Shown piece by piece: positions 30,153 through 53,852 of a stretch of 64,000 nucleotides of DNA. Each line of letters opens with the position of its first letter. Within the stretch, counting starts at the first letter, position 1. The stretch is from Prochlorococcus sp. AG-355-N18 (GTDB lineage Bacteria; Cyanobacteriota; Cyanobacteriia; PCC-6307; Cyanobiaceae). Under the pieces are notes generated by a model. The model did no database searches. It saw only the letters and a program-made list of their open reading frames with translations, and had not been told where the DNA came from. The position numbers and the translations under genes were made by a program. Location: positions 43,974 through 107,973 of the forward strand of contig QCEG01000003.1 of NCBI GenBank assembly GCA_003278535.1. Direction: 5' to 3'.

Positions 30153-31265
30153 TTATTCGTCGAATAATTGAATAGTTTCTGGTCTTTGTCTCTTTTTACC
30201 AAATTCAATATCTGTTAACTCTTTGGTTCTCTTTCTAATGTCTATCCTTTCGTAAGTCTGCATAATCGTAGCTACAGAGTTACCGCAAATACGAGCGAGT
30301 AGATAAGCGTCAGTACCTCTCAAGATATGGTTTTCGATAAAGGTTGATCTCATTGAATAGAGAGTATAAGGACGGTCTGAGAACTTATGACCTTTGAGCT
30401 TTCCAGCAGACATTAAGTAATTACATATCCATCTCCAATGCTGACCGATCTTTCTTTGGTTAGGTTGGTTTAACTCGTTGAATATCTGAGCGAAAACATA
30501 TTCGTCGCCTTTAATAGTGTGGTTAAATTCTTTCTTTAGAATTTCCTTCCAACGCTTGAAAACACTACCTAAGTCACAAGGTATCTCTCTGTACTCCTGA
30601 GTCTTCGCTCTCATTGTTGTTATGTATGCGATAAGTCTTTCTTCTCGACCCCATTCAGTACCTTCTGGAGCCCATTCAGAGGGGTCTTTCAAGTCAGGTG
30701 CTTCTATCTCTAGCTCTACTCCGTCGGCTTGAGCTTCTCCCATTACTTGCTCCCATTCTTCTTGAGCTTTAGTGTTTGATACTCTTCCTACATCAACAAT
30801 TTCTACATTCTTCCATTTGAGTTTGCAGATTTCTTCAGGAGACATACCTGAGTTTTTAGCAACTAAAATCCAATGCCAGAACATATTTCTAAACCATTTA
30901 CTCTTGGCTGTAGTTTTTCTATCAACTATCTTTATATCTTTTCTGAATTGATTAGTTGAAGGTAGCTTAGAGGGTTCATAAGCTTCTTTCCTCCATTTGT
31001 TTCTAACGTGATTGATTATGATTTCCCAGTCTTCAGGATTGATTGCTGGGTTTGCATCTCTGTCGCTCTGTCTGACTTCTATCTTTGGTAAGAATTGACC
31101 ATCCATCCACAAGCGAGCTTCGACATACTTGAACTTAACTAGATAGCTTTTAATAAATTCTCCGAGGACTGAAAGCTCTCTTTGAATAAGGATTCTTTTA
31201 TCTGTATCCTTTAGACGAAAAATACAATAATCATCGAAAGTTGATTCATTGATTTGAGAAGACAT
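30153..31265 (-). CDS. Tyrosine-recombinase-like integrase, catalytic portion (atypical active-site residues)
   Basis: 370 aa. Box I-like WILVAKNSGMSPEEICKLKWKNVEI, box II-like YTLYSMRSTFIENHILRG and LARICGNSVATIMQTYERI (nucleophile Tyr context). Confidence 0.7.
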   Translation of the reverse strand: MSSQINESTFDDYCIFRLKDTDKRILIQRELSVLGEFIKSYLVKFKYVEARLWMDGQFLPKIEVRQSDRDANPAINPEDWEIIINHVRNKWRKEAYEPSKLPSTNQFRKDIKIVDRKTTAKSKWFRNMFWHWILVAKNSGMSPEEICKLKWKNVEIVDVGRVSNTKAQEEWEQVMGEAQADGVELEIEAPDLKDPSEWAPEGTEWGREERLIAYITTMRAKTQEYREIPCDLGSVFKRWKEILKKEFNHTIKGDEYVFAQIFNELNQPNQRKIGQHWRWICNYLMSAGKLKGHKFSDRPYTLYSMRSTFIENHILRGTDAYLLARICGNSVATIMQTYERIDIRKRTKELTDIEFGKKRQRPETIQLFDE

Positions 31266-32966: not shown

Positions 32967-33353
32967 TTATTCTTCAGGATTCAACGTAGGTATACCTTCT
33001 GCTGAAGCCACAGCAACCCACATAACTGCTGAAGTATTACCACTATTAGCCATTGTATGAGCAGGAGTATTTGCTGAGAGAACAAATGAATCCCCCTCCT
33101 TAAAAGTTTTACTAATACCTGTCTTTTCAGCAAGAGTTAATTCACCACTTTCAATATGACCCAGTAAAGGTACAGGATGAGAGTGCATTGGAATTGTTGC
33201 TCCATTTTCAACTTCTACTCTAATCAAACGCATTTCAGCTTTTCCTCTCGGATACTTAAAATTATCCCCATCAATGTTTTCTGAAGAGGTGAAGATTTCT
33301 TGTACATCAACAGGTGATTCTGCAGCCATAGAAATGCTTGGATTGATAAGCAT
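32967..33353 (-). CDS. Cupin-domain protein, probably secreted
   Basis: 128 aa. Cupin motif MHSHPVPLLGHIESGEL...GDSF. The in-frame upstream sequence encodes a signal-peptide-like stretch without a start codon. Confidence 0.6.
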   Translation of the reverse strand: MLINPSISMAAESPVDVQEIFTSSENIDGDNFKYPRGKAEMRLIRVEVENGATIPMHSHPVPLLGHIESGELTLAEKTGISKTFKEGDSFVLSANTPAHTMANSGNTSAVMWVAVASAEGIPTLNPEE

Positions 33354-33772
33354 TAATGCGAAAGCTAATGCGATGAATAAATTCTTAATTATGAATTTGA
33401 ATTTCTATAAAATTATTTAGACTCATAGTATTTATTTTTTAAATATCTGTCAGTACTTGATTTAACTTTTTATGTTTTTGTATAAATCTTTTATAAGGAG
33501 CTAACGCCAGTTATTTTAAATCTACTATTAATGTAAATTTTTTCTTTATCTTTTTATAAATTAAATCTTAAATTATGTAGAGAAACTTATGTAGAAGTTG
33601 TTTTTATATAAGTTATATAAATCAAAATAAGTAGTCTTTTTTACCAATTTAATAGACCTGTTCTTAAATAAATATATTTGTCTTTGAAAAGCTCCTAAAA
33701 AATTCTTTTTCTTGAAATAAACATTGACAAGACATTGATTAAAAAAACTTTTATAAAACATTAACTTCTTTT

Positions 33773-34087
33773 ATGTATATGTTTCTAACCAACAAGACCC
33801 GTTTAAAAATTAAAGATATCGTAAAGAGGATTTCACTAGATGAACCTGTCGCATTGGAAGAAAGAATTTATGTAGAAAAGTTTGCAAAACATAATTCGAC
33901 TATATGGACATGGCTTAAGAAAGCTAATAGCTTGAGGAGATATGGCAAGCAAAAATCAGATGGAATAAATGGACTTATCCAGAATCTTGGCCTTGATGGT
34001 TTAGAAACTGAAAATCATTTCGATCCCAAAAATGATGATCTTGCTGATTGGTTTAGTGGATCTCCTGATTGGGTTAGGAGGAGCTAA
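33773..34087 (+). CDS. Hypothetical protein (104 aa)
   Basis: Track ORF followed by an intrinsic terminator. Confidence 0.5.
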   Translation: MYMFLTNKTRLKIKDIVKRISLDEPVALEERIYVEKFAKHNSTIWTWLKKANSLRRYGKQKSDGINGLIQNLGLDGLETENHFDPKNDDLADWFSGSPDWVRRS

Positions 34088-34102
34088 TTGCCCTCCTTTT
34101 TT
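34077..34102 (+). terminator. Intrinsic terminator
   Basis: GGAGGAGC-TAATT-GCCCTCC (one bulge) followed by T6. Overlaps the stop of 33773..34087. Confidence 0.6.
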
Positions 34103-34115
34103 AATTAAATTTAAA

Positions 34116-34286
34116 TTAATAATGAAAAAAGGGAACCTCCTCCACTTTTCTTGGCGAATAATCACAAATACCAAACTGCATACATTCCATTTGATTATCA
34201 GTTAGTTTTCTCTCAATTGATAATTTATCAAAGAGACCTCCAAATGCATGTTGAATTTTATTTTTTATTAGATTTATGTAATTCAT
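34116..34286 (-). CDS. Small ORF (56 aa) with SD
   Basis: MNYINLIKNKIQHAFGGLFDKLSIERKLTDNQMECMQFGICDYSPRKVEEVPFFHY*. GAGG lies 8 nt upstream. Shares a promoter motif with 43773..43874. Confidence 0.4.
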   Translation of the reverse strand: MNYINLIKNKIQHAFGGLFDKLSIERKLTDNQMECMQFGICDYSPRKVEEVPFFHY

Positions 34287-34475
34287 AATTAACCTCTTTT
34301 TTTGGAAGTTATTTAGTATTCTTTCTATACAAAATCAAGAGTTGTAATACCTAAAATACAAACTATAAATTAATCGGTTTTAAAATATTTCACTATATCC
34401 ATAATCAGTATTTTTGCTCTAGGAAATTTGAATCATAACCTTTAAATTAGATCCACTGATTGGAGGTTTTACTTC

Positions 34476-34589
34476 ATGAGTACTTACAAAACGAAATACT
34501 TTAAAAACACAAAAAAGAGTAATAATACTCTTTGGTTGGATAAATTAATTAATCAACTTGAAAAAAAATCAAAAGGAGTTAGATCATGA
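34476..34589 (+). CDS. 37-aa protein, NNTxWLxxLINxxE family
   Basis: MSTYKTKYFKNTKKSNNTLWLDKLINQLEKKSKGVRS*. GGAGG about 10 nt upstream. Paralog at 35370..35486. Confidence 0.5.
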   Translation: MSTYKTKYFKNTKKSNNTLWLDKLINQLEKKSKGVRS

Positions 34590-34750
34590 ATACATTTAGA
34601 AATAAACAATTCAAAAATGAATTAGATCCCAAGTATGCCTTTTATGATTGTCTTCGTAGTTGCGAACTCAAGAGTAATTCTGAAAAGTCTTTAGAAGAAT
34701 GCGTCGATAATTGTGAACTTAGGCCATTAACGAAGAATCTCGATGGCTAA
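34586..34750 (+). CDS. 54-aa twin-CX3C protein
   Basis: ATGA-coupled to the previous ORF. ...YDCLRSCELKSNSEKSLEECVDNCEL.... The same CX3C...CX3C layout occurs in 58431..58640. Confidence 0.5.
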   Translation: MNTFRNKQFKNELDPKYAFYDCLRSCELKSNSEKSLEECVDNCELRPLTKNLDG

Positions 34751-34827
34751 AAATAGGAAATTAAACTCTATTCAATAACTATTTTGACGTTAAAGAGTTT
34801 TGATATAAATTTTTGGAGGGAAATCTT

Positions 34828-34986
34828 ATGACCAACCTCGCAATTGAGCTACTCCTGTTAATTCTAGTTTTAGTTAATTTTGGAGCGATCCTTACAGCTA
34901 ATATTTATTCAAAATCATTAAAAGATATTCAGCGAAAGAGACAATTTTGTAGAGAATCTATAAGTAACCCATATTGTATTTTTTGA
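34828..34986 (+). CDS. 52-aa single-TM protein
   Basis: GGAGGG lies 8 nt upstream. MTNLAIELLLLILVLVNFGAILTANIYSKSLKDIQRKRQFCRESISNPYCIF*. Confidence 0.45.
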   Translation: MTNLAIELLLLILVLVNFGAILTANIYSKSLKDIQRKRQFCRESISNPYCIF

Positions 34987-35369
34987 TTAATTAATTCCAA
35001 ACTAATAGATCTCAAACTAGAGATCTATTATTAAAAGTTAAAGTCCAACAAAACTAAAAATAAGGAGTATATGGGACTTCCGTTTTCATTGAATCGCCAT
35101 AGTAGCTTTCAGCTGACTTTACTAAGATCCAATAAATGAAATTTAGAAATGATTTTTCCATAGGAACATCTATACCCTTCCTAATTCAAATCAGAATTTC
35201 AAATAAAAACATCGTAGAAAATACTTAAAAATTTCCTTAGTTAATTTGTGATGGATAGGTTTGTATGAAATGCTACTAAAGCTTGTCTTATCAAACGATT
35301 TGGTAATAATGCTTATTGATTCCTTTAATTTCTTAAGATCTATTAAATAGATATAAAAGTAAGAAATTT

Positions 35370-35486
35370 ATGAGTACTCAAAAAAGTCAAAGCCATAAAA
35401 TACAAGAGCCAAATAATACAGAATGGTTAGAAGAATTAATCAATAAAATTGAAAATATGAAAAATAAAATACCTAATACTTTTTAA
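35370..35486 (+). CDS. 38-aa protein, NNTxWLxxLINxxE family
   Basis: MSTQKSQSHKIQEPNNTEWLEELINKIENMKNKIPNTF*. Paralog of 34476..34589. Confidence 0.5.
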   Translation: MSTQKSQSHKIQEPNNTEWLEELINKIENMKNKIPNTF

Positions 35487-35696
35487 CTAATTACGTCTTA
35501 TATCATTTATTGATTAATTAAATATTTTAAATACTTTTGTATTTAAGTCAGCTGGCTTTTTAAATGGAGTGATTTATTTTATTTTTGCGAATAGTTATTT
35601 AACAATGTTTAAATGAGAATCTTTTAAAGCAAGTTTATGGTTCATTTTTATTTTTATTGACAATATTGAAATAAGTGTAAAAAGAATTTTAAATTT

Positions 35697-36887
35697 GTGA
35701 CTACTGAATCATCTAAAAATCAAAACTTTATAAGGAAGCATCCCAGTGAAGGAATGGATGCTTTAGAAAAAGAATCAAAATTACCTTTGAAAGGATGGAA
35801 AACTGAGGTTGCCAGAGCGAAAGAATATGGTTTAGAAGGAGCAAAAAGTATTGTCGATAGAAATATATCTACATTTTCAAGAGGAGAATTACCCCATTTT
35901 GCAGGTATCAATACTTTCATGAAAGCTCCATATGTTGAAAATGTAAATGAAGTGGGAAATTATGATGTTGCGATCGTTGGTGTTCCACATGATTCTGGAA
36001 CTACTTATAGACCAGGGACAAGATTCGGACCTCAAGGAATAAGAAAAATTTCTGCTCTCTATACTCCTTATAATTACGAAATGGGAGTGGATCTGAGAGA
36101 GCAGATATCTATTTGTGATGTAGGAGATATTTTTACAATTCCAGCTAATAATGAAAAAAGTTTTGATCAAATTTCAAAGGGGGTTGCTCATATTTTTGCT
36201 AGTGGTGCATTCCCAATTATTTTAGGTGGAGATCATTCAATAGGTTTTCCCACAGTTAGAGGAGTTTGTCGCCACTTAGGAGATAAAAAAGTAGGGATCA
36301 TTCACTTTGATAGACATGTAGATACTCAAGAAACAGATTTAGATGAAAGAATGCATACCTGTCCATGGTTTCATGCAACTAATATGAAAAATGCACCTGC
36401 AAAAAATCTTGTTCAATTAGGAATTGGAGGTTGGCAAGTACCAAGAGAAGGAGTGAAAATTTGCAGGGAACGAAGTACAAATGTTTTAACAGTTACTGAT
36501 ATCTGTGAAATGGGATTAAAAGAGGCCGCTGATTTTGCGATTGAAAAAGCTACGGATGGAACTGACTGTGTATATATTTCTTTCGATATAGATTGTATTG
36601 ATGCTGGATTTGTCCCTGGAACTGGTTGGCCTGAACCTGGGGGTTTATTACCTCGAGAGGCATTAAAACTTTTGGAATATATTATCAGAAAAGTTAATGT
36701 ATGTGGAATTGAGCTTGTTGAGGTTTCGCCTCCATATGATGTAAGCGATATGACAGCTCTATTAGCTACTAGAGTTATTTGTGATTCAATTGCACATCTT
36801 GTAGTAAGTGGTCAGCTCCCAAGAAAATCTAAACCAGAATGGATTTCAGATAAATGCAATATGTCAGTTGATCAAAAATGGAGATAG
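35697..36887 (+). CDS. gdmH: Ureohydrolase-family enzyme, proposed Ni-dependent guanidine hydrolase (GdmH-like) rather than agmatinase
   Basis: 396 aa (GTG start). Motifs GGDHSIGFP, IHFDRHVDT, SFDIDCIDAGFVPGTGWPEPGG. Immediately followed by hypA/hypB-like genes and an ABC importer. Confidence 0.6.
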   Translation: MTTESSKNQNFIRKHPSEGMDALEKESKLPLKGWKTEVARAKEYGLEGAKSIVDRNISTFSRGELPHFAGINTFMKAPYVENVNEVGNYDVAIVGVPHDSGTTYRPGTRFGPQGIRKISALYTPYNYEMGVDLREQISICDVGDIFTIPANNEKSFDQISKGVAHIFASGAFPIILGGDHSIGFPTVRGVCRHLGDKKVGIIHFDRHVDTQETDLDERMHTCPWFHATNMKNAPAKNLVQLGIGGWQVPREGVKICRERSTNVLTVTDICEMGLKEAADFAIEKATDGTDCVYISFDIDCIDAGFVPGTGWPEPGGLLPREALKLLEYIIRKVNVCGIELVEVSPPYDVSDMTALLATRVICDSIAHLVVSGQLPRKSKPEWISDKCNMSVDQKWR

Positions 36888-36893
36888 ACTTTA

Positions 36894-37250
36894 GTGCATG
36901 AAGTAGATATGACAAAATGCCTTATTCTTTCTATCGAAGAGTGGGCAGAGAAAAAAAATAAAAAAAAAATAGTTGTTGAAAAGATTAATCTTAAGATTGG
37001 CGAATTTACTTGCGTAGAACCAATATCATTAATTAATACTTTTAATGCTGCAGTCTTGGGTTCTTGGTTAGATTCCTCTGAGATTAAAATTGAGACAATA
37101 CCTTTTGAAGGCAAATGCTCTAAATGCAATAGATTATATTTTCCAAAGAAAGAGAATGGATATAAATCTCCGTGTTGCAATTTTAATTTAGAGGAAATTA
37201 TTAGTGGGAGGGAATTAAAAATCGCATCTATTGATTTTAAAGAAAAGTAG
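36894..37250 (+). CDS. hypA: HypA-like nickel metallochaperone (GhaA-like)
   Basis: 118 aa. The GTG start yields the conserved N-terminal MHE Ni-binding motif. Zn site is CSKC...PCC (variant of CxxC...CxxC). Confidence 0.7.
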   Translation: MHEVDMTKCLILSIEEWAEKKNKKKIVVEKINLKIGEFTCVEPISLINTFNAAVLGSWLDSSEIKIETIPFEGKCSKCNRLYFPKKENGYKSPCCNFNLEEIISGRELKIASIDFKEK

Positions 37251-37290
37251 AAATTTAGTATCTAGAATAAAAAAGTATTTTCAAGTAAAA

Positions 37291-37974
37291 ATGCATTTAC
37301 CAATTTCAGACAAAATTGAATTAAATATTCTTCATCAAAATAGTCATCAAGCTGAGAAAAATAAAGTTAAGTTTAATAATTTTAATTTACTTTGCTTGAA
37401 CATAATGAGTAGTCCTGGTGCAGGAAAAACGAGATTACTTGAAATAACTTTAGAAGATCTTTCAAAAAAATTTCAAAGTGCTGTTTTAGAGGGTGATATG
37501 ACCACTAATCTTGATGCGGCAAGATTAGAAAAATTAAATATTCCAGTAGTACCAATTACTACTGGAAGAGCATGCCATCTCGATGCAAATATGGTTAGTG
37601 GAGGTTTGAAATTACTAGAAAAGAAAATAAATCCTGATTTACTAGATATTTTGTTAGTGGAAAATGTAGGAAATTTAGTTTGTCCTGCAGAATTTGAGAT
37701 TGGAGAACATTTTAAAATTGCACTTTTAAGTATTACCGAAGGTGAGGATAAACCTTTAAAATATCCAATAATGTTTAGAGAAGCAGATTTAATTTTGATA
37801 ACTAAGGTTGATTTGTTACCCCATTTGAATTTTGATATTAACGAATTAAAATCGAACATAGCTTCAACTAACCCTAAGGCAGATGTGATAGAAATTTCTT
37901 CGATAACCAAGTCTGGATTCGATTTATGGCAAGATTGGATTAGTAAAAAGATTCTGAAATTTAAAAATAATTAA
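37291..37974 (+). CDS. hypB: HypB-like nickel GTPase (GhaB-like)
   Basis: Start taken at ATG 37291 (the track TTG at 37231 overlaps hypA). P-loop SSPGAGKT, ENVGNLVCPA, TKVDL. Confidence 0.75.
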   Translation: MHLPISDKIELNILHQNSHQAEKNKVKFNNFNLLCLNIMSSPGAGKTRLLEITLEDLSKKFQSAVLEGDMTTNLDAARLEKLNIPVVPITTGRACHLDANMVSGGLKLLEKKINPDLLDILLVENVGNLVCPAEFEIGEHFKIALLSITEGEDKPLKYPIMFREADLILITKVDLLPHLNFDINELKSNIASTNPKADVIEISSITKSGFDLWQDWISKKILKFKNN

Positions 37975-38075
37975 TATTGATTAAGTAGGAATAATCTCTT
38001 AAAAGTATCAGTCATTACAACTTTAGATTTACTTTTTCTTGAGTATTGATAGTACGTAATATTTTTTTTTCAAAA

Positions 38076-39074
38076 ATGTTAAAAAAATTGAGAGTTTTTA
38101 TTGCCTCTTTGCTGGCTCTAATATTAGCGATTTCATTAAGTACACTATCAAGTCCTGCAGCTCCAAAAGGTGAACCAATCACTTTGGGATATAGTAACTG
38201 GGCAGGATGGTGGCCTTGGGCAATAGCTGTTGATCAAAAAATGTTTGAAAAAAATGGAGTAAATGTTCAGATGAAATGGTTTGATGGATATGTTCAATCC
38301 ATGGAAACTTTTGCTGCTGGTAAAATTGATGGAAATTCGCAGACTCTTAATGATACTATTTCGTTCTTGCCAGGAGAGAATGGAGGGGAAGTAGTTGTTT
38401 TAGTTAATGATAATTCTGCAGGGAATGACCAAATAATTGCAGATAAATCAATTAAAAGTGTTGCTGATTTAAAAGGTAAAACAGTAGCAGTAGAAGAAGG
38501 TGTTGTGGATGATTTTTTACTTGTTTTAGCTCTGAATGATGTTGGATTAACTCGAGATGATGTCATTATTAAAGGTCTTCCAACTGATCAGGCTGCAACT
38601 GCATTCGCAGCAGGAAAAGTTGATGCAGTTGGTGCATTCCCTCCATTTACAGGAACAGCAATGAAGAGGCCTGGAGCAAGAGTTATTGCAAGTTCAAAAG
38701 ATTATCCTGGTGCAATCCCTGATTTATTAGCAGTCAGCGGAGATTTGATTTCTGAAAGACCAGATGATGTTCAAAAAATTGTGAAAACATGGTGGGATGT
38801 AAGAGAATTCATGGAAAAAAATCCAAGAAAATCCGAAAAGATCATGGCAAAGCGAGCTGGGATTCCAACACGCGAATATAAACAATATAAAGGTGGAACT
38901 AGGTTCTTTTCTTTGGAAGAAAATTTAGAAGCTTTTAGTGATGGGTTCGGTATGAAACATATGCCTTATGCAGCGAAACAAATGGCAGACTTTATGGTCA
39001 AGGTAGGATTTATTCCTGAAAAACCAGATATGAGTAAATTATTTGACTCTTCGTTCGTTAAAAACATCAGTTAA
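38076..39074 (+). CDS. ABC transporter periplasmic substrate-binding protein (NMT1/TauA/NrtA-like)
   Basis: Start at ATG 38076 gives signal peptide MLKKLRVFIASLLALILAIS.... Has the nitrate/sulfonate/bicarbonate-family look (GYSNWAGWWPW). Confidence 0.75.
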   Translation: MLKKLRVFIASLLALILAISLSTLSSPAAPKGEPITLGYSNWAGWWPWAIAVDQKMFEKNGVNVQMKWFDGYVQSMETFAAGKIDGNSQTLNDTISFLPGENGGEVVVLVNDNSAGNDQIIADKSIKSVADLKGKTVAVEEGVVDDFLLVLALNDVGLTRDDVIIKGLPTDQAATAFAAGKVDAVGAFPPFTGTAMKRPGARVIASSKDYPGAIPDLLAVSGDLISERPDDVQKIVKTWWDVREFMEKNPRKSEKIMAKRAGIPTREYKQYKGGTRFFSLEENLEAFSDGFGMKHMPYAAKQMADFMVKVGFIPEKPDMSKLFDSSFVKNIS

Positions 39075-39090
39075 TTAATACAAAATTAAA

Positions 39091-39909
39091 ATGGTTAGTT
39101 CTAAATTCATCGAGAGGGATAAATATTTTTTATCCCTCTTTTCATTTGGTAGTGAACCGAAAAAATTAAATAAAATATTTCTTCAAATAGCCTCACTTCT
39201 GCTTCCCCTTTTAATTTGGACATTAGTTTGTCAATTAAAACTTGTAAGTGAAATGTTTTTACCATCACCGTTAGCGGTCTTTTATTCTCTTATGGATATG
39301 GCTGAAAGTGGAATATTATTTGAAGATATTTTTGCAAGTACTGGTAGGGTATTTGCTGGTTTTATAATTGCAACAATTTTTTCAATTCCTTTAGGAATTT
39401 TAATGGGTTCATTCCCTTCTTTTTGTGCGTTATGTGAACCATTAATTGCAATGCTTAGATATATGCCTGCCGCTGCTTTTTCTCCTTTGCTTATTATTTA
39501 TTTAGGAATTGAAGAAGCTCCAAAAATCGCTTTAATTTTCATTGGTACCGTTTACTTTAATGTTTTGATGGTTATGGATTCAGTAAAATTTGTACCTAAA
39601 GAACTCATCGAAACAACGCTTACTTTAGGAGGTAATACAAATGATTTGTTGATCAGAGTAATAGCCAGATATTCATTGCCAAGTATTATTGATACTTTAA
39701 GAATTAATATTGCAACTTCATGGAATTTAGTAATTGTCGCAGAGTTAATTGCAGCAGAAGTTGGTTTAGGTAAAAGGATTCAACTGGCTCAAAGATTTTT
39801 TCGTACAGATCAAATATTTGCAGAATTAATAGTTCTTGGATTAATAGGATTTGCTTTGGATATGAGTTTTAGATTACTACTTAGACGTACATGTAAATGG
39901 GCTGTTTAA
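39091..39909 (+). CDS. ABC transporter permease (TauC/SsuC-type)
   Basis: 272 aa, multi-TM. EAA-like loop region ...ETTLTLGGNTNDLLIRV.... Confidence 0.8.
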   Translation: MVSSKFIERDKYFLSLFSFGSEPKKLNKIFLQIASLLLPLLIWTLVCQLKLVSEMFLPSPLAVFYSLMDMAESGILFEDIFASTGRVFAGFIIATIFSIPLGILMGSFPSFCALCEPLIAMLRYMPAAAFSPLLIIYLGIEEAPKIALIFIGTVYFNVLMVMDSVKFVPKELIETTLTLGGNTNDLLIRVIARYSLPSIIDTLRINIATSWNLVIVAELIAAEVGLGKRIQLAQRFFRTDQIFAELIVLGLIGFALDMSFRLLLRRTCKWAV

Positions 39910-40671
39910 ATGAAATTAGATGTTAATAATATTTCAAAATATTTTGGGGAAGGTTCAAATAGAAAAAAGGCAATTGAGGGAATAAGCTTTTCAATAAGTT
40001 CTGGCGAATTTAAAACTCTTGTTGGGAGCTCTGGATCAGGTAAAAGTACTATATTGAGGATTATTGCTGGGCTTGAGAGTCCATCTAAAGGGAACGTAAA
40101 AGTAGATGGGAAAATAGTTAGTGGACCGGGATTGGATAGAGGGATGGTTTTTCAGAAATATAGTCTTTTCCCTTGGCTCACTGCATCTGAGAATATTGCA
40201 TTTGGAATGAATTTAAATTCTTACAAGTTGAAAGAAATAACATATAGGACATCTTATTTATTAGAAGTAGTAGGTCTTCAGGATTCTGGAAATAAGTATC
40301 CAAAAGAATTATCTGGAGGAATGCAACAAAGGATTGCAATTGCAAGAGCTCTAGCGACTAACCCTAAAATTTTGCTTTTAGATGAACCTTTTGGAGCATT
40401 GGACTTACAGATAAGAGAATCTATGCAGAAATTTCTTTACGAATTATGGAAAAAAACTTCATTGACAGTTTTACTTATAACCCATGATATTGAAGAGGCA
40501 TTAGCTCTCTCTCAGCAAATATGTATTTTGGCACCTAATCCTGGAAGAATCATAAAAGAAGTTAGGGTAGATCTACAAAAAGGAGATTTAGATAAATTGA
40601 AACTTGATTCAGATTTTGCAAAATTAAGATATGAGTTATCTGATTTTTTAAGAGGCCTTCAAAAAAAATAA
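39910..40671 (+). CDS. ABC transporter ATP-binding protein
   Basis: 253 aa. Walker A GSSGSGKST, signature LSGGMQQR, Walker B LLLDEP. Its start abuts the permease stop. Confidence 0.9.
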   Translation: MKLDVNNISKYFGEGSNRKKAIEGISFSISSGEFKTLVGSSGSGKSTILRIIAGLESPSKGNVKVDGKIVSGPGLDRGMVFQKYSLFPWLTASENIAFGMNLNSYKLKEITYRTSYLLEVVGLQDSGNKYPKELSGGMQQRIAIARALATNPKILLLDEPFGALDLQIRESMQKFLYELWKKTSLTVLLITHDIEEALALSQQICILAPNPGRIIKEVRVDLQKGDLDKLKLDSDFAKLRYELSDFLRGLQKK

Positions 40672-40674
40672 ATA

Positions 40675-41697
40675 ATGTCAAATAGCTTTTTGCCTACTTG
40701 GCTTTATAACGACCAAAAAATTTTTGAACTTGAATTAGATAAATATTCAAAAAATTATTGGCACCCATTGATTTTCATAGGAGAAATCAAACCTGGCGAA
40801 ATATTAGAAAAAAAATTCTTTAATCAATCATTATTAATCTCGCATACAGAAAATAATTTAATAACTGTTTTTAAAAATAGATGCCCTCATCGTGGGTCAA
40901 AATTGTGTTTACCAAAAACAAAATTAAATCCATCTAAAAATATTTTTTGTCCTTACCATGGTTGGACTTTTGATACTTTTGGCAAACTTAAAACCTTGCC
41001 ATTAAAGTACGATTTTGAGATAAAAATAGAAGCAGAGGATTATTTTTTAGAAAAAGTAAACTCTTTAATAAATGGACCTTTAATTTGGATTAATTTCAGT
41101 AAAAAACCAATATCTATAGATGATCAAATTGAGCTTGTTGGAAGAAAATGTAATGATGAATGGAATATAAATTACAGCATTTTTTCTGAATTTTCTGATA
41201 CTTTAAATTGCAATTGGAAAATTGCCCATGATAATACACTGGATGATTATCATGTTGCAATAGCTCATAAAGATACCCTACATAAAGAGCAAGGTCCAAT
41301 TAAAAACTACAGGTATTTCTTCAGTGAATTGTGTAATGTACTTGTTACCCCTCTTAGTAGTGAAGCAAATCTATATACCTTTGGATTACTCCCATGGACC
41401 CATCTAATAATCTGGCCTGGTAAAGGGATTGTTTTAATAAATTATCTTCCTAAAAATATTGATCAGTGTATTATTGAAATTAAATTAGCCTCTTCTTCTT
41501 TATGTGAAAGTGATTTGGAAAATTGGAAAAAAAGTATATTAGAATTTCTTGGAGAAGATAAAGTTATTGTTGAATCAGTTCATAAGTCTTATCTGGAAAA
41601 TTTTAAACTTGGTCCGCCTAATAGACTTGAACAAAGGATTATACACTGGCACAATATTTATAAAGATTTTCTAAATGCATCGGGCATTTCTTTCTAA
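40675..41697 (+). CDS. Rieske [2Fe-2S] non-heme-iron oxygenase, alpha-subunit-like
   Basis: 340 aa. Rieske CPHRGSKL...CPYHGW and mononuclear-iron motif DDYHVAIAH (D-x2-H-x4-H). Starts 3 nt after the ATPase stop. Confidence 0.8.
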   Translation: MSNSFLPTWLYNDQKIFELELDKYSKNYWHPLIFIGEIKPGEILEKKFFNQSLLISHTENNLITVFKNRCPHRGSKLCLPKTKLNPSKNIFCPYHGWTFDTFGKLKTLPLKYDFEIKIEAEDYFLEKVNSLINGPLIWINFSKKPISIDDQIELVGRKCNDEWNINYSIFSEFSDTLNCNWKIAHDNTLDDYHVAIAHKDTLHKEQGPIKNYRYFFSELCNVLVTPLSSEANLYTFGLLPWTHLIIWPGKGIVLINYLPKNIDQCIIEIKLASSSLCESDLENWKKSILEFLGEDKVIVESVHKSYLENFKLGPPNRLEQRIIHWHNIYKDFLNASGISF

Positions 41698-41805
41698 CAT
41701 AATTTCTATTTACTGCACTGATATTATTAATTAAATTTTTAATATGGTAGGGATTTAACTATATATTTAATAGGCATTATTGATAATATAGTTAAGTGCA
41801 AAAAG

Positions 41806-42129
41806 TTGATTATGAAAAATTTTATACTAATAATAGTCTCTTTATCTTTCCTATCTTCTTGCAGTAATGACAAAGATTTTTTTCTCACTGAGGCGAACGC
41901 TTTGTTAAGTTGCGGAGGTAAATCTCGTATCATTGAAAATGATAAAGAAGAGATAATAAATACTGAAGTCAAGGATTTAAGAGATGGAATTGGTAAATAC
42001 GTTGAATTTACAGTTGTTGAGACTGATAAAAAAGGAGGCAAATATAGAATTATTAATTGTTTCCCAAGTGAAGAACCACAAGATTCAATAATAAAAACTG
42101 TGAAAACAAATTATAAATTAAGTAATTAA
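41806..42129 (+). CDS. Small lipoprotein
   Basis: 107 aa. Signal plus lipobox ...LSFLSSC. Confidence 0.55.
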   Translation: MIMKNFILIIVSLSFLSSCSNDKDFFLTEANALLSCGGKSRIIENDKEEIINTEVKDLRDGIGKYVEFTVVETDKKGGKYRIINCFPSEEPQDSIIKTVKTNYKLSN

Positions 42130-42156
42130 AAGTTATTTAAAATAATTAGCTTACTT

Positions 42157-43011
42157 TTAATCTGAGATTTTTGATGATTTAATTATTTCCCATGCTTCTG
42201 ATGCGCTGTCTGCATATTCGAAAAGATTTAGGTGATCATCTTCAATTAATCCAAGATCAGCTAAATATTCAAAGTTAATTATCTTATTCCAATACTCTCT
42301 ACCAAAAAGTATAATTGGGATTTTAGTTTTCATTCCTGTTTGACACAGTGTCAATAGTTCAAATAATTCATCTAGTGTGCCAAAACCTCCAGGGAAAAAT
42401 ACAGCAGCTACTGATCGCATGACAAAATGGATCTTTCTTAATGCAAAATAATTAAACTTAAAGCAAAGACCTGGAGTTATAAAAGCATTTGGGATTTGTT
42501 CATTAGGGAGACTGATATTTAACCCTATAGATTTACAATTTGCTTCAAATGCACCTCTATTAGCAGCTTCCATAATTCCAGGCCCCCCACCTGTCACGAT
42601 CACGTGAGAATTACAGTTTTTATTTTGATTACTAATTGAAGCAAGTTTAGAAAACTCCCTTGCGGATTGATAGTAATGACTCATTAGAAGCAAATTTTCT
42701 AATCTATTTAAATTTCGTTTTAGAAGTATCGATTTAGGATTTTTTTTAATTAACTCTTCTATATTTTCAAGTCTCTTTTTTATATTTGATTCTTCTGTAA
42801 TGCTTGCGCCTCCAAAAATAATTATTGTTGAAAGAATTTTGTTTTCTTCAAGGATTAAATCTGGTTTAGTGATTTCAAGAAGCATTCTGACTCCACGCAT
42901 TTCATTTCGGCTAAGTAAACAAATATCTTCGTGAGCCAATTTATAAGTATCAGAATTAATAATTAAATTCAGGTTTTTTAAATTTTTATTAGGGGATATA
43001 TGTTTTTTCAT
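42157..43011 (-). CDS. LOG-family (TIGR00730 / lysine-decarboxylase-like) nucleotide-binding protein
   Basis: 284 aa. Motifs TGGGPGIMEAAN and PGGFGTLDELFE. Confidence 0.8.
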   Translation of the reverse strand: MKKHISPNKNLKNLNLIINSDTYKLAHEDICLLSRNEMRGVRMLLEITKPDLILEENKILSTIIIFGGASITEESNIKKRLENIEELIKKNPKSILLKRNLNRLENLLLMSHYYQSAREFSKLASISNQNKNCNSHVIVTGGGPGIMEAANRGAFEANCKSIGLNISLPNEQIPNAFITPGLCFKFNYFALRKIHFVMRSVAAVFFPGGFGTLDELFELLTLCQTGMKTKIPIILFGREYWNKIINFEYLADLGLIEDDHLNLFEYADSASEAWEIIKSSKISD

Positions 43012-46999: not shown

Positions 47000-47082
47000 A
47001 AATCGTCCGATCTACCATCTGATAGACCGCAGTACGACTCAAGCCATAGGACGGGGACTTGGGCAAATTCAGGAGCTGCATC
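47000..47082 (+). promoter_or_regulatory. Candidate glutamine riboswitch (glnA RNA / Downstream-peptide class)
   Basis: GC-rich leader aaTCGTCCgatc...ataGGACGGGGAC. CGTCC (47004-08) pairs with GGACG (47049-53). AGGAG SD at 47071-75. The downstream micro-ORF carries an L.YRG..Y motif. Confidence 0.45.
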
Positions 47083-52861: not shown

Positions 52862-53852
52862 AAGAAATTTATTTAATTTGTACTGTCTTTTCCCGCATTA
52901 TAAAATATGAATGTTGTATAGACCAAAATAAAATTTCTACAAAAAGAAAATTTTAATTTACCAATGTTCAAAAAAAAAGTTTTTTACTTGCAGTAAAACA
53001 AAAAATTTGGTTTCTTAAAAAAAAAGGGGTTTGGAATGAAAAATAAAACTTTCATATACGAATGCAATTGCATACACTGCCAACAAAAACTAAATCAAAT
53101 TAATAATGCAAAACTATATTGGGACAAATTAATTTCAAGAAAAAAGTTCGTATAGTTTTTCTACTAAATTCTCTAAGGTTTTGAAACTTTGTTACATTAA
53201 AGTAGTTTTAAAAAATTTATTCTTTTTAAGAAAAAAGATGTTGTACGATCTCAAGATCTTAATTAAGTATTAAACTTTTTTAGAATAACGATATTATTTA
53301 ACCTTTTGATTTTTTTTGTAGATTATATTTTCTCGATTTAATAGAAAAAGAATAATCAAAATACATGATGGTATTAAAATAAAATCTAAAGACATACATT
53401 TTTTTCAGTCTATTATCTATTTAGCAAATAAATAAATCCTTGACATTTTTTACTTATGCTCAAGATTTAATTCGATGGGTCTAATAAATATCTATATCTT
53501 TAGTATATTTACTTGCTTTTAAATTGAAAGAGCCTGCAAGTATCCCACCGGCAAGCTCATGACGATCTAGTTAATTCAGATATTTTCTGCCTTAACCAGC
53601 TGAGCACTTCCTAAATGCTAAATATATCTTAGTAAGTAAAATTACTTACTGTGAGTATAAATGCTTATTTTTACGAATGATTGCGAATTTGATAATAAAA
53701 AGTGATTTTTTTAAATGTGGCTTGTTGAATTTTTTTTACATAAATGTCACAAATTGACTCATAATATGGATGCTAGGATGTAGTTCATTGGAGATTTTGG
53801 TTTACATAAGTTAATATTTGTGTTACTTTAGTTAACAATTATCATATCTTTA

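Follow-up and report, generated by a model that had tools for sequence, protein, structure and literature searches.

In a stretch of 64,000 nucleotides (nt) from Prochlorococcus sp. AG-355-N18 (contig QCEG01000003.1, positions 43,974 to 107,973; this whole stretch is called the window below), a gene for a Rieske non-heme-iron oxygenase is the genuine last cistron of a gimA-gimB-gimC-Rieske unit. Judged by its gene content, the surrounding cluster is a guanidine assimilation cluster of the GdmH type, in which a hydrolase, HypA- and HypB-like chaperones and an importer of the NitT/TauT type occur together. All of the hydrolase and importer genes that an earlier reading of the DNA letters without database searches (the sequence-only reading) had placed upstream of the oxygenase were found: an arginase-family gdmH, the HypA- and HypB-like genes ghaA and ghaB, and the gimABC genes for an NMT1/SsuA-type substrate-binding protein (SBP), a permease and an ATPase. 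It is highly probable that the Rieske gene encodes a functional oxygenase dedicated to this cassette, and it is a candidate for a new enzyme activity. The more specific mechanism, in which the enzyme dealkylates a substituted guanidine to feed GdmH, is advanced tentatively and with slightly less than even confidence.

The association with the guanidine cluster was examined in a genome scan (one genome per species, two clade-specific peptides), which yielded 202 stretches encoding a relative. The best 80 of these 202 loci were examined, 66 from Prochlorococcus and 14 from Synechococcus, Cyanobium-like and Aphanocapsa genomes. Wherever the contig extends, the Rieske gene directly follows gimC of a full gdmH cluster in all 80 loci, and the same adjacency was seen in three further loci beyond this set. 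The order from gdmH to gimC and the Rieske gene is kept in the most divergent members of the clade, found in Synechococcus sp. RSCCF101 and in KRAE22, a lineage from brackish or freshwater metagenomes. The gimC-like ATPase gene of the window stops at 40671, which leaves the 3 nt before the oxygenase start codon at 40675 that the sequence-only reading had noted. This distance is shared by most Prochlorococcus loci; others show overlaps of 1, 4 or 11 nt between the two genes, and a single locus has a gap of 9 nt. In the Synechococcus-type loci both genes overlap or lie close together, with distances that were estimated from the first ATG and are upper bounds. When 1.8 billion representative proteins were searched with a profile, the clade proved to be sharply bounded, as its members score at least 390 bits and the next matches at most 238 bits. 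For the converse comparison, metagenome contigs were searched with the gimC ATPase. The Rieske gene adjoins the ATPase gene in 54 of the 74 informative contigs, while the remaining 20 carry more divergent clusters of high G+C content, in which the ATPase does not exceed 60% identity to that of the window. Co-occurrence of this Rieske family with gdmH clusters, which had been proposed as a check, was thus borne out: no clade member was found away from a guanidine cluster among the 80 genome loci, the three further loci, the 54 metagenome contigs and the matches of the profile search. As far as these sequence searches reach, the clade is narrow and restricted to picocyanobacteria. The converse search also means that the clade never occurs without the cluster, but that the cluster may lack the Rieske gene, as in the 20 contigs and in Synechocystis. 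The window itself resembles Prochlorococcus: its closest relatives are Prochlorococcus single-cell genomes, and its G+C content is low, with about 31% in the related loci. Metatranscriptome contigs in the two runs X2 and X3 join position 35486 directly to 42168 and omit 6681 nt, which represents an allele without the whole cassette. Because this join removes the block from gdmH to the small open reading frame (ORF) orf107 in its entirety, the Rieske gene belongs to a presence/absence cassette. At its right end, the join falls within a LOG-family gene on the minus strand, 9-11 nt from the 3' end of that gene.

Ligand motifs, catalytic triad and predicted fold all identify the encoded protein of 340 amino acids (aa) as the alpha (catalytic) subunit of a Rieske non-heme-iron oxygenase. 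The protein contains the motifs quoted in the sequence-only reading (C70-P-H72-R-G, C92-P-Y-H95-G-W and D190-D-Y-H193-V-A-I-A-H198) and exceeds the Pfam cutoffs for the Rieske domain (55.2 bits, cutoff 20.3) and for Ring_hydroxyl_A (PF00848, the START-like catalytic domain; 34 bits, cutoff 24.9). Two alignments, one with 20 and one with 78 members of the family, revealed that the ligands of the Rieske [2Fe-2S] cluster (C70, H72, C92 and H95), the ligands of the mononuclear iron (H193, H198 and D295) and the bridging carboxylate D190 are invariant. The triad aligns with H208, H213 and D323 of the carnitine monooxygenase CntA, and D190 aligns with the bridging E205. An AlphaFold2 model, for which the 78-sequence alignment served as input, reached a mean predicted local distance difference test (pLDDT) value of 90.1 and a predicted template modelling (pTM) score of 0.88, with disorder only in the loop 198-202. 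The ORF is far beyond chance because the family comprises 193 word-indexed homologues and the reading frame is unbroken in every complete locus examined; the sole apparent frameshift lies in a fragmentary single-cell contig. No gene for a beta subunit was found near the ORF, which corresponds to an alpha-only architecture, and the ORFs and Pfam matches of the cluster include neither a reductase nor a ferredoxin gene. Pairwise comparison of the Prochlorococcus copies gave a ratio of nonsynonymous to synonymous substitution rates (dN/dS) of approximately 0.20, and the gene is under purifying selection. This value resembles that of the flanking genes (0.18-0.24). Within the cluster, gdmH, ghaA, gimB and gimC have values of 0.05-0.08, and the medians for gimA and ghaB are 0.055 and 0.136.

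Metatranscriptome data support the proposed co-transcription of the Rieske gene with the importer genes. RNA contigs from four marine metatranscriptomes cross the junction between gimC and the Rieske gene (40402-41141, 40405-40952, 40408-41177 and 40451-40841), and another contig (41257-41957) connects the Rieske gene to orf107. The Rieske gene and the remainder of the cluster are covered at similar depth, in contigs that are strandless and may include DNA carry-over. No terminator-like site was found between gimC and the Rieske gene. The 3' end of gimC contains sigma-70-like matches. Since the whole region has fewer such matches (41) than its shuffled versions (55.3 +/- 7.5), they provide no evidence for a separate promoter of the Rieske gene. 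A putative NtcA box precedes gimA, and its GTA and TAC elements are retained in 54 of 54 Prochlorococcus loci, with changes only within the N8 spacer; the box is missing from the 14 Synechococcus/Cyanobium-type loci. The gimABC genes of Synechocystis have an NtcA promoter of their own, and the binding-protein gene of Prochlorococcus groups with nitrogen-stress genes in metatranscriptomes from the field. Based on the conserved box, the Synechocystis promoter and this clustering, the gimA-gimB-gimC-Rieske unit of Prochlorococcus is likely to be under NtcA control, with the box as the predicted promoter element. No guanidine riboswitch exceeded the gathering threshold in the window or reached E<=1 within 33300-35800, and riboswitch control was rejected for Prochlorococcus. 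A guanidine-I riboswitch does precede gdmH in six of the seven Synechococcus/Cyanobium loci scanned. From these sequence elements, it looks as if ligand sensing in Synechococcus and Cyanobium has been swapped for global nitrogen control in Prochlorococcus.

The nearest relatives of the oxygenase by sequence and fold are the quaternary-ammonium monooxygenases of group V (CntA, GbcA/BmoA, the stachydrine demethylase Stc2 and CMO), of which CntA, GbcA and Stc2 are closest and share its alpha-only architecture. CntA is the best sequence match in the PDB (E 1e-16, whole-length alignment), followed by other alpha subunits. The best NCBIfam profile is that of the glycine betaine monooxygenase GbcA (NF058607), for which the protein scores 82.3 bits where 670 would be required. 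A Foldseek comparison of the predicted structure likewise returned CntA (probability 1.00, template modelling (TM) score 0.76-0.80) and Stc2 (TM score 0.81-0.83) as the best matches. Group V enzymes hydroxylate the carbon beside a cationic nitrogen, which results in dealkylation. However, the hallmarks of this group are not present in the window protein. The bridging residue is Glu (E205) in CntA and Asp190 here, and the Cys-X-X-Cys pair of some group V members (C206/C209 in CntA) is replaced by D191 and V194. The signature position 203 of CntA, which is Tyr or Phe in subgroup Va (cation-pi) and Asn in subgroup Vb, corresponds to an invariant Thr188. Together with the GbcA score below the cutoff, these differences led to the rejection of group V membership, and the protein is regarded as a neighbour of group V and not as a member. 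The kinship with N-demethylating betaine, carnitine and stachydrine systems suggested by the sequence-only reading therefore stands in so far as the nearest relatives are the N-dealkylases CntA, Stc2 and GbcA, and fails at the level of the group's hallmarks. The motif DNTLDDYHVAIAH is invariant across the clade, while many of the more distant matches carry ECYHC. According to the authors of the CntA study, C206 lies approximately 4.4 Å from the substrate's ammonium moiety. The residue at this position, D191, was considered as a clade-specific guanidinium-binding residue and dismissed since Asp is shared by outgroups unlinked to gdmH; it is kept as a weak lead. The pocket was examined by sequence mapping onto CntA, which is unreliable in the beta-sheet part.

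The nearest outgroup Rieske genes lie outside guanidine clusters. In outgroup P0125 and in the P0129/P0280 cluster, each Rieske gene follows a gene for an S-adenosylmethionine-dependent methyltransferase (L081, 3-734; L082, 7559-8332; L083, 402-1175), and one of these methyltransferases belongs to the NNMT/PNMT/TEMT family acting on small molecules. A fusion of amino-acid permease, PAS and histidine kinase domains is also encoded upstream of the outgroup Rieske gene in L082. Outgroup P0135 adjoins a TetR-type gene, and P0140 is part of a catabolic cluster that also encodes NicX-family and hydrolase proteins and a regulator of the AraC type. The methyltransferase neighbours lend weak support to a function as N-dealkylase, and none of the outgroup contexts is decisive.

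Association of a Rieske gene with the guanidine cluster is already published for Synechococcus and Cyanobium. A study of picocyanobacteria described a Rieske Fe-S gene (CK_00002251) downstream of a TauABC-like transporter in most Synechococcus and Cyanobium genomes (Doré et al. 2023, ISME J, PMC10119275). Its clusters Pro-eCAG_004 as well as Syn-eCAG_001 contain the same genes in the same order as the window. The same authors reported that the gene is absent from the Synechocystis cluster, in agreement with the sequence-only reading, and only proposed a role of iron as cofactor (PMC10119275). In Synechocystis sp. PCC 6803, sll1077-sll1082 comprise the same six genes in the same order with an NtcA-type box before gimA, and the predicted guanidinium-binding residues of its GimA are conserved in the window protein; unlike the window, this cluster has no Rieske gene. 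In the library searched, no paper was found that reports a reaction or function for the Rieske gene. What is new here is the extension to Prochlorococcus (66 genome loci), the strictness of the linkage with its tight junctions, the RNA across the junction, the evidence for purifying selection, the family placement with the failed group V assignment, and the exchange of the riboswitch for an NtcA box. The idea of a two-step pathway, which the sequence-only reading had thought undescribed, has meanwhile lost this status because such a pathway was demonstrated with a non-homologous oxygenase. In Vreelandella boliviensis, MgdH and MgdL are encoded in an operon with a guanidine-I riboswitch and convert methylguanidine to guanidine and formaldehyde (Sinn et al. 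2025, PMC12508155). The window shares with this system an oxygenase gene inside a guanidine degradation operon with an ATP-binding cassette (ABC) importer, although the role of the oxygenase is only proposed here. MgdH is a 2-oxoglutarate/Fe(II) dioxygenase that is not homologous to the Rieske oxygenase of the window, and it is paired with the dedicated lyase MgdL and a guanidine carboxylase pathway instead of GdmH. The Rieske enzyme would hence represent a non-homologous, GdmH-coupled solution.

The fixed position in the guanidine operon and the N-dealkylases among the nearest relatives fit a role in the conversion of substituted guanidines to guanidine. The oxygenase would act as an alpha-only, probably alpha3, monooxygenase within the cassette of gdmH-ghaA-ghaB and gimABC-Rieske. 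Electrons would pass from the general photosynthetic ferredoxin of the cell, the presumed donor, to the Rieske cluster and via D190 to the mononuclear iron in the adjacent subunit. There, O2 would be activated and a small substituted guanidine would be hydroxylated at a carbon bound to one of its guanidino nitrogens, with methylguanidine as the simplest candidate. Breakdown of the resulting hemiaminal would release free guanidine and an aldehyde (formaldehyde in the case of methylguanidine), and GdmH could then hydrolyze guanidine to urea and ammonium. Expression would start at the NtcA-type promoter before gimA in Prochlorococcus and would occur behind the guanidine-I riboswitch in Synechococcus and Cyanobium. 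In this way, the enzyme would widen the range of guanidine compounds that can be used as nitrogen source under nitrogen stress. It is conceivable, though on balance doubtful, that the clade constitutes a new kind of oxidative N-dealkylase, of the Rieske type and guanidine-releasing, which would be analogous but not homologous to MgdH and would provide nitrogen from methylated or otherwise substituted guanidines.

Several observations weigh against this proposal. The 20 related clusters of high G+C content and Synechocystis do without a Rieske gene. The gene is three to four times more relaxed in dN/dS than gdmH, ghaA, gimB and gimC, and its identity between Prochlorococcus and Synechococcus is 39% as compared with 54-87% for the other six genes. 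The substrate-recognition hallmarks of group V are absent from the protein. The predicted guanidinium site of the importer in Synechocystis comprises W59, W62, D135, F205 and D233 of GimA, and hand mapping to the published residue numbers matched these with W52, W55, D128, F198 and D226 of the window GimA at a constant offset of 7. Among 127 SBPs that were searched for an adaptation of the pocket, W52, W55, D128 and D226 are invariant and F198 is either F or Y, so that the predicted guanidinium pocket is the same with and without a Rieske gene and there is no sign of a larger ligand being imported. No MgdL-like lyase is evident, although Sinn et al. (2025, PMC12508155) described N-(hydroxymethyl)guanidine as unusually stable. 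The tested guanidine-I riboswitch of Vreelandella boliviensis rejects methylguanidine (PMC12508155); if the Synechococcus riboswitches behave alike, induction would occur by the product and not by the substrate.

As an alternative, the substrate could be guanidine itself, or else a toxic analogue or by-product imported by GimABC (for example hydroxyguanidine, aminoguanidine or methylurea), with the oxygenase providing a detoxifying or alternative oxidative step instead of supplying guanidine. The importer pocket is predicted to bind free guanidine in all clusters, the Synechococcus operon is preceded by a guanidine-I riboswitch, the one tested example of this class is guanidine-specific, and guanidine is toxic to Synechocystis at high concentration. 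Such a step is nevertheless unlikely, given that GdmH already disposes of guanidine in a single hydrolytic reaction, that no precedent for Rieske N-oxygenation of guanidine was found in the literature examined, and that the nearest relatives hydroxylate the carbon next to the nitrogen. The low constraint on the protein in comparison with the guanidine genes, the terminal 3' position in the operon, at which additions come easily, and the unrelated contexts of the closest outgroups would also be compatible with an attack on an unrelated organic nitrogen compound, for which the nitrogen-stress transcript (NtcA or riboswitch) is merely a convenient expression context. This, too, appears improbable: although identity is down to 39%, synteny is absolute in Prochlorococcus, marine Synechococcus, Cyanobium and Aphanocapsa, no clade copy was found outside a guanidine cluster, and the gene is gained and lost with the cassette.

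A catalytic role has also been weighed against two readings without one. Doré et al. tie the Fe-S protein to the absence of the cluster from low-iron waters (PMC10119275), and close to their view of iron as a cofactor, the protein might be a non-catalytic Fe-S accessory, either a redox partner or a GdmH maturation factor. An invariant and complete 2-His-1-carboxylate iron site with a bridging Asp is not expected of a mere electron carrier, and GdmH works in Synechocystis in the absence of a Rieske protein, which makes this role very unlikely. Least credible is a decaying or functionless gene that is passively carried. Although dN/dS is the highest within the cluster and the identity between Prochlorococcus and Synechococcus is very low, decay is largely refuted by the intact ORF in each complete locus, the invariant metal ligands and a dN/dS of 0.20 that indicates purifying selection as in the flanking housekeeping-type genes; moreover, the gene is transcribed.

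No other phototrophs of the ocean are as abundant as Prochlorococcus and Synechococcus, which are often limited by nitrogen. If oxidative release of guanidine from substituted guanidines is correct, Prochlorococcus, marine Synechococcus and Cyanobium would draw on a marine pool of dissolved organic nitrogen that is not currently credited to them. As the enzyme needs iron, the use of substituted guanidines would then be tied to iron supply. The guanidine cassette is widespread in low-nitrogen waters and absent from low-iron waters (Doré et al. 2023, PMC10119275). Assignment of the substrate would define which guanidine compounds are really usable by picocyanobacteria, could explain the iron dependence of the cassette and would add a new type of Rieske reaction.

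The features of the cassette are listed in Table 1. The gdmH product is 84-87% identical to those Synechococcus orthologues that are situated behind a guanidine-I riboswitch. The true start of gimA is probably the ATG at 38076. Behind the Rieske gene and inside the Prochlorococcus cassette lies orf107, which is kept in nearly all Prochlorococcus loci at 54-98% identity (mostly 92-98%) with a median dN/dS of approximately 0.15 and has no counterpart in the Synechococcus clusters.

Table 1. Features of the guanidine cassette and its oxygenase gene in the window
Feature	Position	Strand	Details
Rieske oxygenase ORF, alpha-only non-heme-iron	40675..41697	+	ATG start, 340 aa, intact
gdmH, Ni-dependent guanidine hydrolase, arginase family	35697..36887	+	Pfam Arginase, E 2e-79
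ghaA, HypA-like Ni chaperone	36894..37250	+	Pfam HypA, 80 bits
ghaB, HypB-like GTPase	37231..37974	+	NCBIfam TIGR00073 hypB, 275 bits
gimA, periplasmic guanidine-binding protein	38046..39074	+	Pfam NMT1_2, SsuA family
gimB, permease	39091..39909	+	Pfam BPD_transp_1
gimC, ATPase	39910..40671	+	Pfam ABC_tran
orf107, small lipoprotein-like ORF	41806..42129	+	LSSC lipobox by eye; no Pfam match
Putative NtcA box GTATCAGTCATTAC	38005..38018	+	exact GTA-N8-TAC; 58 nt before probable gimA ATG
Presence/absence cassette, gdmH through Rieske gene to orf107	35487..42167	.	metatranscriptome joins 35486-42168

Additional genes were observed in some of the related clusters. A gene resembling type III glutamine synthetase (TIGR03105, 563 bits) lies within the guanidine operon of some freshwater or brackish clusters (5011-6390 in L088 and at the same coordinates in L089), and a gap of 1.6 kb separates the hypB and SBP genes in L078 and L079. 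The TIGR03105 family includes gamma-glutamylmethylamide synthetases, and pairs of glutamine synthetase-like and Rieske proteins occur in aniline dioxygenase systems. The presence of this gene in a guanidine operon may point to an amine intermediate. In Synechococcus sp. RSCCF101, whose genome also has the Rieske gene, a 2OG-FeII_Oxy_5 oxygenase of 241 aa is encoded directly upstream of gdmH (L087, 3033-3758); MgdH, at 41 kDa, is much longer.

To the left of the cassette, two small ORFs on the plus strand (34476-34589 and 35370-35486) encode peptides of 37 and 38 aa with a similar middle motif, N-T-L/E-W-L-D/E-K/E-L-I-N. The second of these ORFs ends exactly at the left cassette boundary and is preceded by an NtcA-type box (35263-35276). 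No tRNA genes were found within 25000-50000 of the window. Approximately 4.4 kb upstream of the cassette, an ORF of 370 aa on the minus strand (30153-31265) has a sub-threshold match to Phage_integrase (20.6 bits, cutoff 27.1) and may be the remnant of a genomic island. Further downstream, a glutamine-II riboswitch aptamer (47001-47063, plus strand, 56.8 bits) and the small RNA Yfr20 (53531-53620, minus strand, 74.9 bits) were detected, both of which are typical of marine picocyanobacteria.

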